Shown: positions 56,452-60,563 of the stretch, piece by piece | Layout of the letters: each line of letters begins with the position of its first letter | Numbering within the stretch: the stretch's first letter is position 1 | From: a virus | Direction: 5' to 3' (one strand) | Virus record (IMG/VR): IMGVR_UViG_3300024999_000068 | Span: 1-64,000 of that record | Length of the DNA stretch: 64,000 bases | Notes under the pieces: model-generated | Seen by the model: only the letters and a program-made list of their open reading frames with translations | What the model was told of the DNA's origin: nothing | Databases searched by the model: none | Position numbers and translations under genes: made by a program

Positions 56452-57138
56452 TCACAATGCAAATACTAATACCTTTGCAAATAATATCAACCCACCTAAC
56501 AATATTGAACCACCAACTATTTTTGTTTTTGCTGTTTTACCTTCCTCTGTATCTTCCACATTATCAGGTTGAACTATAGGTGGAAATACAGGATCTTTTA
56601 TCTCTTGTGTTTGTCCTGCATCAGTTGTTAAATGAGTTTTTACTTTGGATATCAATTTTTCTAAATTGTCATTATCTTTAAAATGTTTTCCAATTTCTAC
56701 CTCTATTTCATCAGTAACACCTTCTGCCGTGACAGTTCTCCTATACTTAAAAATATCTTTATCATATCTTCCGTTCATACCAGTATTTTTAATTTTATTT
56801 TGCACATATCTTCCAATTCTATCTAATCCACCTAAACTTGCTAATTGCATATTTGAAGGAGTTGCCACAATCATATCTCCATTACTTAATTTTTTATTCC
56901 ATTCTTGTAAAGTGCCATAGCCTAAACTTGGATTTGATTCTAGCCAGAACATATTATTGTTTTGTGGCATTGGATAAAGATAATATAATTTATGATATGG
57001 TTTAGTTACATAATCAGTTGGAGTTGCTTTTGCTACGAATGGATTTATTAGTGTAATGCCTACTAATATCATCATTATTGATAATGCTAAATTCCTACGA
57101 ATAGATGATTTTTTCAATACAATCATTCTTAATTTCAT
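56452..57138 (-). CDS. Exported protein with signal peptide and C-terminal membrane anchor
   Basis: Basic-hydrophobic-AKA N-terminus; C-terminal hydrophobic helix; ATG 57138 coupled to the upstream stop. Confidence 0.6.
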   Translation of the reverse strand: MKLRMIVLKKSSIRRNLALSIMMILVGITLINPFVAKATPTDYVTKPYHKLYYLYPMPQNNNMFWLESNPSLGYGTLQEWNKKLSNGDMIVATPSNMQLASLGGLDRIGRYVQNKIKNTGMNGRYDKDIFKYRRTVTAEGVTDEIEVEIGKHFKDNDNLEKLISKVKTHLTTDAGQTQEIKDPVFPPIVQPDNVEDTEEGKTAKTKIVGGSILLGGLILFAKVLVFAL

Positions 57139-57374
57139 ATAATTACCCCTTTCTTTTTCAAGAATAAGAATTCTGCGTCTAGAACTTCCATAATATCTTC
57201 TCGCGATAATGCGGTTTCCCACGCGATAAAATCAATCAATTCTTGTTCTTCAATATCAGGAATTTGATCAGTATTAACTAGTAACCATTTTCGATATTCT
57301 CTTTCACTTAACCAACGGTTTGAATATTTTATGACAAATTTACGAAACAATTCTTTTGCTTTTGTAGTTTTCAT
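57135..57374 (-). CDS. Small hypothetical protein (HU N-terminal-like helices)
   Basis: ELIDFIAWETALSREDIMEVLDA; RBS gaggtg. Confidence 0.5.
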   Translation of the reverse strand: MKTTKAKELFRKFVIKYSNRWLSEREYRKWLLVNTDQIPDIEEQELIDFIAWETALSREDIMEVLDAEFLFLKKKGVII

Positions 57375-57395
57375 ATGAACACCTCTTTCTTACAA

Positions 57396-58052
57396 TCATT
57401 TTAAATAACTAATTGGATTTACAGTTTTACCATTAATTCTAATCTCAAAATGTAAGTGATTTCCAGTAGAACCAAATCCTGAAGATCCTATTTCTGCAAT
57501 CTTTTCACCGCTAAAAGCCATTTTGCCTTCCGTGACAATAACTTTTGAACAATGAGCATATAGAGTTTCATATCCATTACCATGATCAATAATAACGTGT
57601 AATCCGTATGGGCCTTCAGAATTAATAATCTTCTCAACTTTTCCTGTTCGACTAACTTTTATCACATCTCCTAAGTTTCCAGAAATGTCCAAACCATGAT
57701 GAGTATCCCCAGTATAATTCTGTGTAATTTTACCCTTAATAGGCCAACTAAATTTTGCTCCTAAATATCTCTCCCATATATTTTTATAGCCGACATCCAT
57801 AGTTTCACTATTACTATCAATTCCTAAAACATTATTAATCTTCTCCTTTCCTCCGCTATAAGTCATAGCAATAGAATGAATATCATCACTAAATTGTTTT
57901 AGAGGAGCAAAAGTACATGATATAACCATTAATCCTAAACTAACAACTGCAAGCCACTTAATTGCTAATGCCATCTCTCTACCAGAAGTATGTCTAACAT
58001 AAATATAAACCACTAAATATAAAGCACTTAAGCGTACAAGATTGGAAATCAT
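57396..58052 (-). CDS. M23/LytM peptidase with N-terminal two-TM SpoIIIAC/AD-like hairpin (SpoIIQ-like)
   Basis: HHGLD, YAH, GSTGNHLHFE, VNP motifs; N-terminal TM-GRE-TM hairpin. Confidence 0.8.
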   Translation of the reverse strand: MISNLVRLSALYLVVYIYVRHTSGREMALAIKWLAVVSLGLMVISCTFAPLKQFSDDIHSIAMTYSGGKEKINNVLGIDSNSETMDVGYKNIWERYLGAKFSWPIKGKITQNYTGDTHHGLDISGNLGDVIKVSRTGKVEKIINSEGPYGLHVIIDHGNGYETLYAHCSKVIVTEGKMAFSGEKIAEIGSSGFGSTGNHLHFEIRINGKTVNPISYLK

Positions 58053-58255
58053 TTGAAAACCTCTGCCACTTTTTTAAGAAAATCTAGAGAAGCATTTAGC
58101 ACTATAAGAGTTACTAGTATTAAACCAAGGGTATCTGCGTAATACGTCCATTCACCTTTCCCAAATATTTTAAGTCCCATTTTTACCACTTGTAAACCCA
58201 CAGCGATGCCAAGAATAGCTAAAATTGGGGTAGACGCTTGAATTCCTTGGAACAT
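58049..58255 (-). CDS. SpoIIIAC-like small membrane protein
   Basis: 68 aa; I..I.G......GK.EW......LG.......D..KK...VF matches the SpoIIIAC pattern as recalled. Confidence 0.65.
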   Translation of the reverse strand: MFQGIQASTPILAILGIAVGLQVVKMGLKIFGKGEWTYYADTLGLILVTLIVLNASLDFLKKVAEVFK

Positions 58256-58977
58256 TTTAACTCCTCCTTTTTTGCTAAATGAAGTTTTGAACAGAAGTTT
58301 TTAATTTCATCAAGAGTAAGAAGTTCTATCGAATATGGGAATGCTTTATCCTTGTTGATTATCTTCTGAATTTTGTTTTTTGCTGTATCACCTCCATCAG
58401 TTACAATTAAAACTACAAATGTTTGATTTTTGGACAAGTCTATCCACCAATAAGTAGAAATGCCTTGATATTTATCTTTAATTAGTTTTTCTGCCAAGGA
58501 GTTGTATTGCTTGATTTTTTTAAATTCATTCCCTGATTCATATCTGGTAAATTCATTGAAATATATCTTTTTGTCATTAAATGTATCAAATGTCATAAAT
58601 TGATCTGGTTTTATAATTGGTAAAAATTGATTTGGTTCATTCTCAAAAGTAAGATTCGTATAATTACTTGCTCTAGCATTAAGGACAATAAAAGTATAAA
58701 TCCATGATTTACCTAATGTGTGTTCGATATTCTTAGGTTTTTTCTCATCAAATAACCAAAAATAATCTTTTTCTAAAAATGAAATTCTATCACCTCTCTT
58801 AATCCTATGTTTTTTCTCTAATCTTCTACAACAACGATGTGCCATTTCAATTGAAAGACCTTGGAATTCAAGTAAATGGATTTGTGTTGTGTTCAAGCAG
58901 ATACAACGTTCTAGATGTGTTAACACTCTTAAATCTCGGTAGTAACCCTTTGTATGATTTGTTTGATTCACAATCAT
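58219..58977 (-). CDS. Replication-relaxation (Replic_Relax) family protein
   Basis: RDLRVL...LNTTQI wHTH start, EHTL, IKPDQF, YFNEF; immediately downstream of ftsK. Confidence 0.7.
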   Translation of the reverse strand: MIVNQTNHTKGYYRDLRVLTHLERCICLNTTQIHLLEFQGLSIEMAHRCCRRLEKKHRIKRGDRISFLEKDYFWLFDEKKPKNIEHTLGKSWIYTFIVLNARASNYTNLTFENEPNQFLPIIKPDQFMTFDTFNDKKIYFNEFTRYESGNEFKKIKQYNSLAEKLIKDKYQGISTYWWIDLSKNQTFVVLIVTDGGDTAKNKIQKIINKDKAFPYSIELLTLDEIKNFCSKLHLAKKEELKCSKEFKRLPQF

Positions 58978-60241
58978 AGACCTCCCCTTGAATGTCTGTA
59001 TAAGGCATAGGATATTGAATTAATTTAGATAGTAATTCTTCGTATTTATCTGGGTCTGATGCAATACTAGGAAAATACATAGACTGTACCTCTATTTCTT
59101 CATCCCAATCAAATATTGCTCTACCCTTTGCTTTTTTAGGGATAAATGCTGCTTTTGAATTTCCTAAAACCATATTGGAGTTCGTCGCATCCTTTACTTT
59201 ATAAACTAAATTAGCGTTAAACATTGCCTTTAACTCACTGAAGTTTCCTATTTTACCAAGACTATTTGCACTCGGTCTCTGAATTGCTCCTACGGAAAAA
59301 ATTCCTTGGGATCTCCCTTGATGAAGTAATCGATTAAAAGATTCATATGCATCGGAAGTGAATTCTGCCATTTCATCACAAAAAATTACTAGTGCTGGCA
59401 TTTGGTATCCTAGTTTTAAAAACTCTGGGAAATTTCTAGCTCCAGTTTTACTAACTATTTGTGCTCTGCGATCATTTTCTACATTAACTTGTTTTAATAA
59501 TTTCTCTATGTGTGAATGTTCTTTTGCCCACAAAGCACCATATTTTTCAAAATATTTAAATTCACCAAGTTTAGGATCACATATTACAGGGATCACAGCA
59601 GGTTCACTATCAATACCTTTCAAACTGTTTATAAGTAGCATTGTATAAATAGCAACATGACTAAAATTTGATTTACCTGAACCCATTTGTCCTACAAGTA
59701 AAAGTGTAAGCATATCACACAAATCTTTAACTATTAATCCGTTAATCGAGTATCCAAAAGGGATAGGAATTACCATACCCCTTTTTAGATATAGTGTCGG
59801 ATCAAAATTATAAGGATATGTTTTAGTTCTGTTTACATTAGAAATAGTCATATGAACTGCCATGCCGTGTTGCTCAATCTGGCAATTGCCTGTTTCTCCT
59901 AAAGCGTCTGCGAAAGTTTGTTCTAATTTTTTAAAATTTTCAAAGTTTAGTCCGGCAGGAAGATTAATTACAAAAAACCAAGTTTCATTATTATGTTCAT
60001 CTAAACTTTTAATCCTTTGGATTACTTCTTTAATACTTTTAGGTCTACTTAATTTAGTTTGTTCTGCTACATCTTCATCCTTCGGTTTTACAAGATGCCT
60101 TTTGATAATTATAGGACGATAATCTTCTCCATAATGAAACACAATTACATCATAAACTTTTGCAGGAATTCCACCACCACGCTCTCTTCCTTTTTTCCAT
60201 TGTTTAATTGCAAGATCATAAGCATCCATTTTGTTTGACAT
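58868..60241 (-). CDS. FtsK/SpoIIIE-family ATPase
   Basis: Walker A GQMGSGKS, DPK, Walker B LVIFCDEMAE, GR..G...QRP, GRA; likely start ATG 60241 after gaaggtg. Confidence 0.9.
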   Translation of the reverse strand: MSNKMDAYDLAIKQWKKGRERGGGIPAKVYDVIVFHYGEDYRPIIIKRHLVKPKDEDVAEQTKLSRPKSIKEVIQRIKSLDEHNNETWFFVINLPAGLNFENFKKLEQTFADALGETGNCQIEQHGMAVHMTISNVNRTKTYPYNFDPTLYLKRGMVIPIPFGYSINGLIVKDLCDMLTLLLVGQMGSGKSNFSHVAIYTMLLINSLKGIDSEPAVIPVICDPKLGEFKYFEKYGALWAKEHSHIEKLLKQVNVENDRRAQIVSKTGARNFPEFLKLGYQMPALVIFCDEMAEFTSDAYESFNRLLHQGRSQGIFSVGAIQRPSANSLGKIGNFSELKAMFNANLVYKVKDATNSNMVLGNSKAAFIPKKAKGRAIFDWDEEIEVQSMYFPSIASDPDKYEELLSKLIQYPMPYTDIQGEVYDCESNKSYKGLLPRFKSVNTSRTLYLLEHNTNPFT

Positions 60242-60563
60242 AAATTCACCTTCTTTATAGTGATTATGAATAAGTAACAAAAGTGTGAACATACGTTTGC
60301 TGAAACATTATTCACAACGTTTACCGATACAAACGGTTAACAAGCTAAAAACTGCATGTAGCAAGGAATCTAAAATCAAAAGAAGAGAAGGAGGAACAAT
60401 GTGCCGACAGATAATGAATCGTATGAAAGAGGACAGTAGATAATGTTTGGTAAATATTATGAGTTAGTGAAAAAAGGGATAAAGTAAATTAAGGCAGTCT
60501 ATTATCTTTTATAGACTTGCCTTAATTTAATAAAAATGCCATATATTTATTAAATTTAATTGG

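Follow-up and report, generated by a model that had tools for sequence, protein, structure and literature searches.

A 'DNA translocation operon' has been defined in Bacillus thuringiensis phage 0305phi8-36, in which a relaxase related to MobC of CloDF13 adjoins a coupling ATPase that lacks a transmembrane (TM) domain, accompanied by VirB6-like and MreB-like membrane proteins that are encoded separately (Pathria et al. 2012, PMC3357382; this paper and those below are cited from excerpts of their text). The excerpt remarks on the TM-less translocase and on a need for separate membrane anchors, and it names SPO1 gp27.3, GBSV1 gp43 and proteins of Gamma, Cherry, Fah and Wbeta as phage members of the relaxase family, with partial versions of the operon in SPO1, GBSV1, Bacillus virus 1 and Gamma/Cherry/Fah/Wbeta (PMC3357382). 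Here, we describe a six-gene cassette in the virus record IMGVR_UViG_3300024999_000068, for which our preferred reading, held at about even confidence, is that of an enlarged, new version of this operon, moving phage DNA across the cell envelope without VirB4. The window, that is, the whole stretch of DNA that was analysed, comprises the first 64 kb (positions 1 to 64,000) of a linear IMG/VR record of 86,550 bases, the completeness of which is 57% by CheckV estimate.

Combinations of this kind have been described elsewhere. The Replic_Relax family PF13814 has been equated with the MobC relaxases, and in integrative and mobilizable elements (IMEs) of streptococci a TcpA-type coupling gene is commonly located directly upstream of a gene for a non-canonical relaxase, pore genes being absent (Coluzzi 2017, PMC5357655). 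A TcpA mutant deprived of its TM domain still conjugates, at a lower frequency (PMC7434980), and in Bacillus pumilus phages TrbC/VirB2, Replic_Relax and FtsK/SpoIIIE genes occur together and are filed under plasmid functions (Skorynina et al. 2022).

The cassette of the window consists of six co-oriented minus-strand genes (60241-56452), which overlap or abut one another and are followed by a terminator-like hairpin. The lengths below are in amino acids (aa).

58868-60241, minus strand: FtsK/TcpA-type ATPase, 457 aa, TM-less
58219-58977, minus strand: Replic_Relax-like protein (RR), 252 aa
58049-58255, minus strand: p68, a 68-aa two-TM hairpin protein
57396-58052, minus strand: M23 peptidase, 218 aa, anchored by two TM segments
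57135-57374, minus strand: p79, a 79-aa soluble protein in a variable slot
56452-57138, minus strand: p228, a 228-aa exported, C-anchored protein

The genes for the ATPase and RR overlap out of frame by 110 nucleotides (nt; 58868-58977), and both protein sequences are kept in relatives; the equivalent overlap in cassettes of Bacillaceae amounts to 14-20 nt only. The RR and p68 genes overlap by 37 nt and the p68 and M23 genes by 4 nt, while the stop of p79 abuts the start of p228. A preliminary description of this DNA, made from its letters alone, had reported a tightly coupled minus-strand operon that includes a 68-aa two-TM protein, an M23 peptidase and an exported, C-anchored protein, all of which is borne out here; p79 is a sixth gene, absent from its list.

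Like the operon of 0305phi8-36, the cassette is phage-borne; a putative relaxase-like gene adjoins that of a TM-less ATPase, membrane proteins are encoded separately, and an actin-like gene is found in the vicinity. Its membrane proteins (p68, M23 and p228) belong to families other than orf203/orf207: the membrane part of 0305phi8-36 is VirB6-like, while that of the window is made up of the SpoIIIAC-like hairpin p68, the M23 hydrolase with its two TM segments and the exported p228 with its C-terminal anchor. Furthermore, the ATPase of 0305phi8-36 is AAA_10/VirD4-like and that of the window FtsK-like, the gene order differs (ATPase, then RR), the ATPase identity is only ~24% and the similarity of RR lies near the detection limit. 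An ATPase gene followed by a Replic_Relax-type gene was found in all four loci opened for comparison (PfEFR-4, pBM700, 268TH007 and GBSV1), each with a small protein encoded before the ATPase that carries hydrophobic C-terminal helices in the hydropathy scan (two segments in three of the four, one in PfEFR-4 gp27). A known phage-plasmid, Clostridium phage c-st, has a comparable cassette (CST192-CST197, AP008983), in which an FtsK/SpoIIIE-like gene is followed by a gene for a 205-aa winged helix-turn-helix (wHTH) protein and small membrane proteins are encoded as well; it is transcribed divergently from the partition genes tubZ/tubR, as the window cassette is from its own partition genes. In contrast, the c-st proteins show no BLAST-level similarity to those of the window, the c-st ATPase is 621 aa long, and its cassette contains neither an M23 nor a p228 gene.

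In Bacillota, conjugation modules of the Tn916/ICEBs1/pCW3 type include a TM-anchored peptidoglycan hydrolase. They differ from the window cassette, which has no VirB4 over the cut-off, no VirB6- or VirB8-like protein that could be seen, a TM-less ATPase and another relaxase type. Common to both is an FtsK-type coupling ATPase gene (TcpA/ConQ) directly upstream of a relaxase-type gene (PMC5357655).

Conservation of the gene set and its carriers

Pattern scans yielded 19 related contigs, 17 of them viral and two from metagenome-assembled genomes (MAGs). The genes for FtsK, RR, M23 and p228 occur in one and the same order in 18 of the 19 (tblastn), the remaining contig stopping within FtsK, and this recurrence is more than chance. 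Across these contigs the identity of the ATPase falls from 89% to 38%, and the GC content of the locus ranges from 29% to 43%. By tblastn, p68 itself was seen in seven of the 19 contigs and p79 in two (L010 and L013), with other small genes occupying the p79 slot elsewhere. The p68 slot is nevertheless filled by a two-TM open reading frame (ORF) of 73-89 aa in all eight diverged loci listed (L018-L020 were left out), and these ORFs align with p68 via a G-x-x-I/F-F-G-x-G loop.

The AAA_10 model (PF12846), the single VirB4 model used, exceeded its cut-off in none of five records (the record of the window, three related virus records, including a complete 67-kb genome, and one MAG), in agreement with the preliminary description, which had seen no VirB4 in the window. 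In the record of the window, PF12846 matches nothing but the cassette's own FtsK gene (12.7 bits).

One of the carriers is a complete genome of 67,207 bases with direct terminal repeats, and another is a 67.7-kb contig of a Bacillota MAG, which may itself be a binned phage; its GC content is 37%, whereas three further pieces of the MAG have 42-44%. A carrier contig labelled as a gammaproteobacterial MAG is probably misbinned. Among 401 genomes from the phylum to which the carrier MAG belongs, the RR profile matched four (G006, G135, G107 and G001). The first of these Bacillota genomes carries the full cassette on a contig of 374,595 bases (FtsK 8.5e-99, RR 1.1e-37, an 83-aa hairpin, M23 2e-53 and p228 1.8e-55). 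FtsK and RR are accompanied by two small hairpin proteins in G135 and by one hairpin protein in G107, and G001 holds two copies.

Proteins of the cassette

Translation of the ATPase probably starts at 60241 (MSNK..., 457 aa) rather than at 60292 (an ORF of 474 aa), because an AAGGTG ribosome-binding site (RBS) is found at the former and none at the latter. The protein matches phrog_1358 (3.3e-35) and possesses a Walker A motif (GQMGSGKS, residue 184) and a Walker B motif (VIFCDE, residue 285). The preliminary description had called it an FtsK ATPase; an FtsK-like ATPase is indeed encoded here. Its score against the Pfam FtsK_SpoIIIE model (23.8 bits) falls just short of the cut-off of 24, and its start has been moved from 60292. 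It lacks hallmarks of the chromosome translocases of the FtsK/SpoIIIE kind: it has no N-terminal TM domain, no hydrophobic segment being visible in the 457 residues, and scores 19.4 bits against NF007615 (FtsK), the cut-off of which is 1566. Among solved structures, the closest chains are 6o1z/6o1x/6o1w (2.4e-7 over residues 157-391), to which the depositors gave the name 'DNA translocase coupling protein' and which are probably TcpA of pCW3; Pseudomonas FtsK follows at 1.8e-6.

Within NCBIfam, the ATPase ranks EssC (2.8e-11), plasmid TraB (6.1e-8), EccCa and FtsK in this order, all far below their cut-offs (31.6 bits against 800 in the case of plasmid_TraB). TraB of Streptomyces, which serves the conjugation of double-stranded DNA, is an FtsK-type motor that operates without VirB4 and works with small membrane proteins; it is itself membrane-bound and needs no relaxase. 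The ATPase of the window also matches the ATPases of 46 phage records (35 of Bacillus, two of Geobacillus), GBSV1 gp42 (3e-8) among them, and those of 238 plasmids (123 of Priestia, 99 of Bacillus). The narrow protein family around it comprises 15 proteins, which are metagenomic. In a diverged branch of the cassette family, a basic protein of 60-80 aa, ribbon-helix-helix (RHH)-like by eye, is encoded directly upstream of the ATPase gene (L008 7741-7923, L014 7591-7833). A small RHH gene has likewise been reported next to the cassettes of B. pumilus phages, and the window has none at this place.

RR appears to be built from a wHTH-like N-terminal part and a PD...ExK-like core. An alignment with relatives and with the PfEFR-4 and pBM700 proteins retains five invariant residues (R14, D15, H86, Y94 and E142), that is, the N-terminal R-D pair, H86, Y94 and the glutamate of the PD...E-x-(Q/T) core. 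Four of the nine aligned members match PF13814, the best at 6e-11, while tblastn of RR against GenBank phages (E<=0.01) returned no match.

The M23 peptidase has a strong M23 domain, with 88.9 bits against PF01551 (2.6e-25; cut-off 28.7). Its zinc motifs, HHGLD and HLH, are intact and its catalytic histidines are present, as the preliminary description had noted for the HxxxD/HxH pattern, and H119, D122, H167, H199 and H201 are invariant among 15 sequences; two relatives have NHGLD in place of HHGLD. The N-terminal domain contains two hydrophobic helices joined by a basic loop, which, by the positive-inside rule, would leave both the M23 domain and the short N-terminus on the outer side of the membrane. 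The first 95 residues of the protein are restricted to the cassette family, with 29 metagenomic matches that all belong to M23 proteins.

Some likenesses proposed for this protein did not hold. The N-terminus gave hhalign probabilities of 2.8% and 2.2% as a SpoIIIAC/AD module, and its reported similarity to p68 is one of topology only (BLASTP E of 1.8; hhalign 1-5%). The preliminary description had further regarded the protein as a SpoIIQ-like fusion; the SpoIIQ model NF053738 (50.1 bits against 250) ranks tenth of 15 behind generic M23 hydrolase/activator models, and the domain is thus not specifically SpoIIQ-like. A complex prediction for M23 residues 1-85 with p68 returned a score of 0.00, which is no answer and carries no weight either way.

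For p228, the start is most likely at 57138 (MKLRMIVLKK..., 228 aa) rather than that of a 256-aa ORF beginning with GTG. A Sec-type signal peptide is seen, with a basic n-region, a hydrophobic core and an A-x-A site (..VAKA/T), followed by a conserved alpha/beta domain, a proline-rich stalk and a C-terminal hydrophobic TM anchor. This predicted topology would put the p228 domain outside the membrane, like the M23 domain. YLYP, F64, E67, P70 and W80 are invariant in an alignment of 14 homologues. No family match for p228 was found in Pfam, PHROGs, NCBIfam or PADLOC, nor did it match SpoIIIAH, and its AlphaFold2 (AF2) model from the 14-row alignment is poor (pLDDT 51, pTM 0.29). After p228, four diverged loci encode a further conserved protein of ~85-105 aa with an N-terminal anchor (MRKLIL...NP.KSNYI.Y...FIPLK; L017 5789-6106, L022 5094-5408, L024 3992-4249 and L025 4592-4900), which is absent from the window.

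The small protein p68 is probably a remote relative of SpoIIIAC within a fast-evolving family, as judged from profile comparisons. The profile of the p68 family aligned with that of SpoIIIAC (built from 29 sequences of Bacillota spoIIIA loci) at an hhalign probability of 90.2% (P of 1.5e-6) over 61 of 68 columns, and the match is colinear through helix 1, the loop motif (K-x-x-G-K/R-x-E) and the C-terminal V-F. A reversed-alignment control gave 1.3%. When columns were permuted within helices, loop and tails, none of 150 such segment shuffles reached the observed score of 34.1 (mean 10.7, sd 2.6, maximum 21.5). TIGR02848 (spore_III_AC) is the sole NCBIfam match of p68 (E of 0.0062, 17 bits against a cut-off of 56.65) and is matched by six of 17 family members (best E of 0.0015), no other model being matched by more than two. 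In the ESM Atlas, two SpoIIIAC-labelled clusters rank second and third for p68 (0.90 and 0.88), scores near 0.9 also arising for 4-10% of shuffled proteins, and once the PF06686 clusters are set aside no usable named match remains. Size and two-TM layout are likewise those of SpoIIIAC. The resemblance of p68 to SpoIIIAC thus exceeds that to any other family tested, as far as such comparisons reach; it is weak and far below family cut-offs, and p68 is outside the SpoIIIAC family as curated.

Several results bear on how simply this match can be read. SpoIIIAC aligns with SpoIIIAD at 96.9%, whereas p68 does so at 0.1-5.8% only, which counts against a simple reading. The likeness is also lost in a sister branch, as the diverged 73-aa branch taken alone aligns with SpoIIIAC at 7.4%. 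No Pfam model matched p68 at E<=10, and PF06686 is matched by only two of the 17 family members (best E of 0.066). Unlike SpoIIIAC, p68 is encoded outside a spoIIIA operon: its neighbours are FtsK, RR and M23, and the 86.5-kb record has no other PF06686 match. The family is narrow, with 13 metagenomic proteins by protein search. Searching 1.84 billion representatives with the p68 profile yielded 12 matches, namely 11 short family proteins and one repetitive protein of 262 aa, SpoIIIAC being absent among them, and tblastn of p68 against GenBank phages (E<=10) gave none. Of the affinity to SpoIIIAC and SpoIIIAD that the preliminary description had proposed for p68 and the M23 N-terminus alike, the link between p68 and SpoIIIAC therefore stands, below curated cut-offs, while those to SpoIIIAD and from the M23 N-terminus do not.

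The SpoIIIAC signal recurs in cassettes other than that of the window. CST196 of c-st aligns with SpoIIIAC at 79.5% (CST197 at 22%), the two hairpins of G135 reach 90% and 71%, and those of G006 and G107 remain below 1%. Overall, four of eight cassette hairpin entries exceed 70%, which none of 15 control sequences does that were taken singly from four further families of two-TM proteins (maximum 31%). We found no published report of a SpoIIIAC link in such cassettes in a search at the level of listings and the beginnings of abstracts. Other identities considered for p68, i.e., VirB2/TrbC, Maff2 and FliQ, were discarded within the sensitivity of these comparisons, as all gave 9% or less, the TrbC and Maff2 profiles being thin (seven and three sequences). 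The hairpins of G135 (L120 7917-8400) and c-st CST196/197 (L113 15090-15603) form tandem SpoIIIAC-like pairs, which replace one hairpin, M23 and p228 and mirror the AC/AD pairing of the spoIIIA operon.

Leader and genomic neighbourhood

The cassette is flanked by the following features:

60242-60484, minus strand: operon leader with a CATAATAT box, a weak sigma-A-like pair and AAACG/CGTTT repeats
56414-56440, minus strand: terminator-like hairpin, a 12-pair stem followed by a T-run
60888-61931, plus strand: ParM-type actin-like partition protein, a divergent neighbour outside the operon (ALP_N 3.6e-10, phrog_691 1.1e-24)

The preliminary description had pointed to a box resembling the -10 element of sigE/sigK promoters. 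This CATAATAT box is indeed present (60461-60454, minus strand), but it is not conserved: in an alignment of the window with five relatives, the close relatives L010 and L011 have CGCAATAT at its position and one relative has TATAAT in register. The leader is kept among these relatives, but the C of CATA varies, and the upstream region of L014 is unrelated. A weak sigma-A-like pair (TTATCC at 60482-60477, a spacing of 17 nt and TAATAT at 60459-54) is equally compatible with the leader, in which a consensus scan found no strong promoter. Three AAACG/CGTTT motifs (60290-60335) form an imperfect inverted repeat that is kept even in L014 (69% identity). They are candidates for an operator or for an RR binding or nick site, and their density in the leader is no higher than elsewhere in the genome. 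Directly upstream of the operon, a strongly hydrophobic ORF of 28 aa (MALIGIICIISGSS...; 60574-60660, minus strand) with a good ribosome site is followed by a perfect hairpin with 12-bp arms (60485-60529); the ORF is kept in four close relatives (L010-L013).

The operon is transcribed divergently from ParM/ParR. The window (GC of ~29%) contains siphovirus-type tail genes, among them those for a tape measure of 1529 aa and a tail protein of 1765 aa, as well as numerous homing endonucleases. The whole 86.5-kb record, which is incomplete, yielded no tyrosine integrase. Because of the tail genes, the adjoining ParM and the lack of a tyrosine integrase in the record, a phage maintained as a plasmid is a fair reading for this virus, the incompleteness of the record notwithstanding. 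The evidence supports a coherent operon of the DNA-transfer kind in a phage that also carries plasmid-type partition genes, in line with the preliminary description, which had supposed a DNA-transfer device in an extrachromosomal prophage. No near-identical DNA was found in phage and plasmid collections, and the lookup of sequencing runs listed no RNA run, the best DNA runs being groundwater metagenomes of one study (0.33 word share).

Past the terminator, the next downstream gene forms a transcription unit of its own with a hairpin (54728-54759) and encodes a DndB/DGQHR-domain protein of 506 aa (54786-56306, minus strand; PF14072, 1.5e-22) with a long acidic/lysine-rich N-terminal region. Relatives of this protein (31-58% identity) are encoded near the cassette in several loci, on the opposite side in L013. 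An endonuclease-like protein of 353 aa with repeated SEETR-K-type motifs is encoded further on (53662-54723, plus strand), and fragments resembling its C-terminus recur beside the cassette in relatives.

Possible roles of the cassette

The three conserved envelope proteins make a membrane- and wall-spanning device for the handling of DNA the most economical reading of the cassette. In such a device, RR would bind, and perhaps nick, the DNA of the phage-plasmid, the inverted repeats of the leader being a candidate site. This DNA would pass to a soluble, hexameric motor of the FtsK type, which the two-TM domain of the M23 protein, together with the SpoIIIAC-like hairpin, would tether to the membrane. 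The M23 domain, outside the membrane, could open the peptidoglycan locally, and p228, on its proline-rich stalk, might make or sense contact with a cell surface. We infer this assembly, as well as its substrate and its destination, which may be a neighbouring cell, a sister cell or the forespore. The preliminary description had also offered a minimal conjugation-like system as an alternative, and the closest published relative agrees better with this.

A number of points weigh against the reading of the cassette as a DNA translocation operon. To our knowledge, every known system for the conjugation of single-stranded DNA uses VirB4, and the cassette has none. No polytopic channel protein is encoded, with ~5 TM helices per protein set. 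The assignment of RR is weak: the Replic_Relax match reported in the preliminary description is present, at 17.5 bits (E of 0.0045), and remains under the PF13814 cut-off of 25.3. The RR family profile aligns with those of four Bacillaceae RR proteins, GBSV1 gp43 included, at an hhalign probability of 41.5% (P of 2.7e-4, colinear over 157 columns), no sequence relatives of RR were found in the PDB, and its AF2 model from a nine-row alignment is poor (pLDDT 41). Compared with the membrane proteins of Bacillaceae cassettes (four sequences), p68 scores below 1%, and the term 'membrane anchor' is therefore an analogy. Some cassette-bearing virus records have neither ParM nor a tyrosine integrase, so that the link to a plasmid lifestyle is not general. 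Finally, deletion of the operon of 0305phi8-36 caused no laboratory phenotype or growth defect, and the excerpt of that report states that its role in phages is unknown (PMC3357382).

The preliminary description had favoured a device coupled to sporulation, which would pump an episomal phage genome into the forespore and, by means of its hairpin and M23 protein, build or attach to the region of the SpoIIIA-SpoIIQ channel. This appears unlikely. An episome would need a route into the small forespore, and the likeness of p68 to SpoIIIAC, which survives the shuffling control, has no rival among the named Atlas families and recurs in CST196 and the G135 hairpins above all controls, speaks in favour of such a coupling. 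Against this, SpoIIIE of the host already transports DNA across the sporulation septum, the likeness is lost in the diverged p68 branch and in two other cassette hairpins, and neither the N-terminus nor the domain of the M23 protein carries a signal specific to SpoIIIAC/AD or SpoIIQ. All four cassette-carrying Bacillota genomes possess spoIIIAC/AD, but so do 52 of 61 sampled genomes of the phylum (85%) in the case of spoIIIAC, and the host link is for this reason uninformative. The CATA box is not conserved, and the four related virus records contain neither sigma-factor region 2 (Sigma70_r2) nor genes for small acid-soluble spore proteins (SASPs). The related ATPase of phage Fah is, moreover, a delayed gene in lytic infection, as reported in the excerpt of a review which also speculates on a role in sporulation for FtsK/SpoIIIE homologues (PMC4113786). 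A pure mobilization module, in which the relaxase-like protein and the coupling protein use the pore of another element and the envelope proteins are accessory or serve surface exclusion, seems quite improbable. The absence of VirB4 over the cut-off in five records is consistent with it, as are the streptococcal IMEs that pair a TcpA-type gene with a relaxase gene without pore genes (PMC5357655) and the small Clostridium perfringens plasmids with ftsK/spoIIIE genes that have been proposed to be mobilizable (PMC10210947). It leaves unexplained, however, why hairpin, wall hydrolase and surface protein are retained with the pair in 18 of 19 contigs, and in the IME survey, as excerpted, the MobC/PF13814 relaxases accompany VirD4, not TcpA (PMC5357655).

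Maintenance of a plasmid-prophage, with the ATPase and RR acting alongside ParM in replication, dimer resolution or septum clearing, is distinctly unlikely in our view. The divergent arrangement with ParM/ParR, and with tubZ/tubR in the c-st counterpart, speaks in its favour, papers on Bacillus phages class such genes as plasmid replication/segregation functions (PMC9658697, PMC7685451), and an MreB-like gene accompanies the operon in 0305phi8-36 and SPO1 (PMC3357382). Nonetheless, the pair is also found in integrating Bacillus phages and in lytic phages (PMC3357382), and ParM was found in only two of the four virus records searched, the complete 67-kb genome possessing neither ParM nor a tyrosine integrase. 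Segregation, furthermore, needs no secreted or wall-active proteins. A role in defence or superinfection exclusion is very unlikely; here, the envelope proteins would sense or block incoming DNA, to be destroyed by the translocase and a PD-(D/E)XK nuclease. The pair is located between the lysis and lysogeny modules in Bacillus/Geobacillus phages, which is the usual place of accessory genes, and a DndB/DGQHR-domain gene follows the operon. The weak PADLOC matches of the ATPase to SspH (5.6e-8) and mads8 (1.2e-7) could be added to this, but they reflect the shared P-loop domain; among the seven proteins searched against the PADLOC models only the ATPase matched, and the other six, including RR, p68, M23 and p228, did not. 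The presence of the operon in lytic phages also argues against defence (PMC3357382).

Phages and plasmids of Bacillota widely carry members of this cassette family, which has been in the literature since 2012. Read as an enlarged DNA translocation operon, the version of the window adds parts that would be expected of an envelope-spanning device, namely a hairpin in the membrane, a hydrolase for the wall and a protein at the surface, and it strengthens the weak but repeated link to SpoIIIAC. A more far-reaching possibility, which we consider doubtful, is that phages and phage-plasmids of endospore formers possess a self-contained, VirB4-less machine that transports double-stranded or nicked DNA through membrane and wall and has a small subunit sharing ancestry with SpoIIIAC of the channel between mother cell and forespore. 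In the lineage of the window it would have acquired an M23 enzyme and a surface protein of its own, and by it the episome would cross a septum into the forespore or a neighbouring cell without virions. If true, part of the SpoIIIA channel would have a relative among mobile elements, and this would bear on how non-integrated prophages enter spores and on the particle-free movement of phage DNA between cells. These proteins may thus be candidates for a VirB4-independent route of DNA translocation and may offer a hint at the role of the small SpoIIIA proteins.

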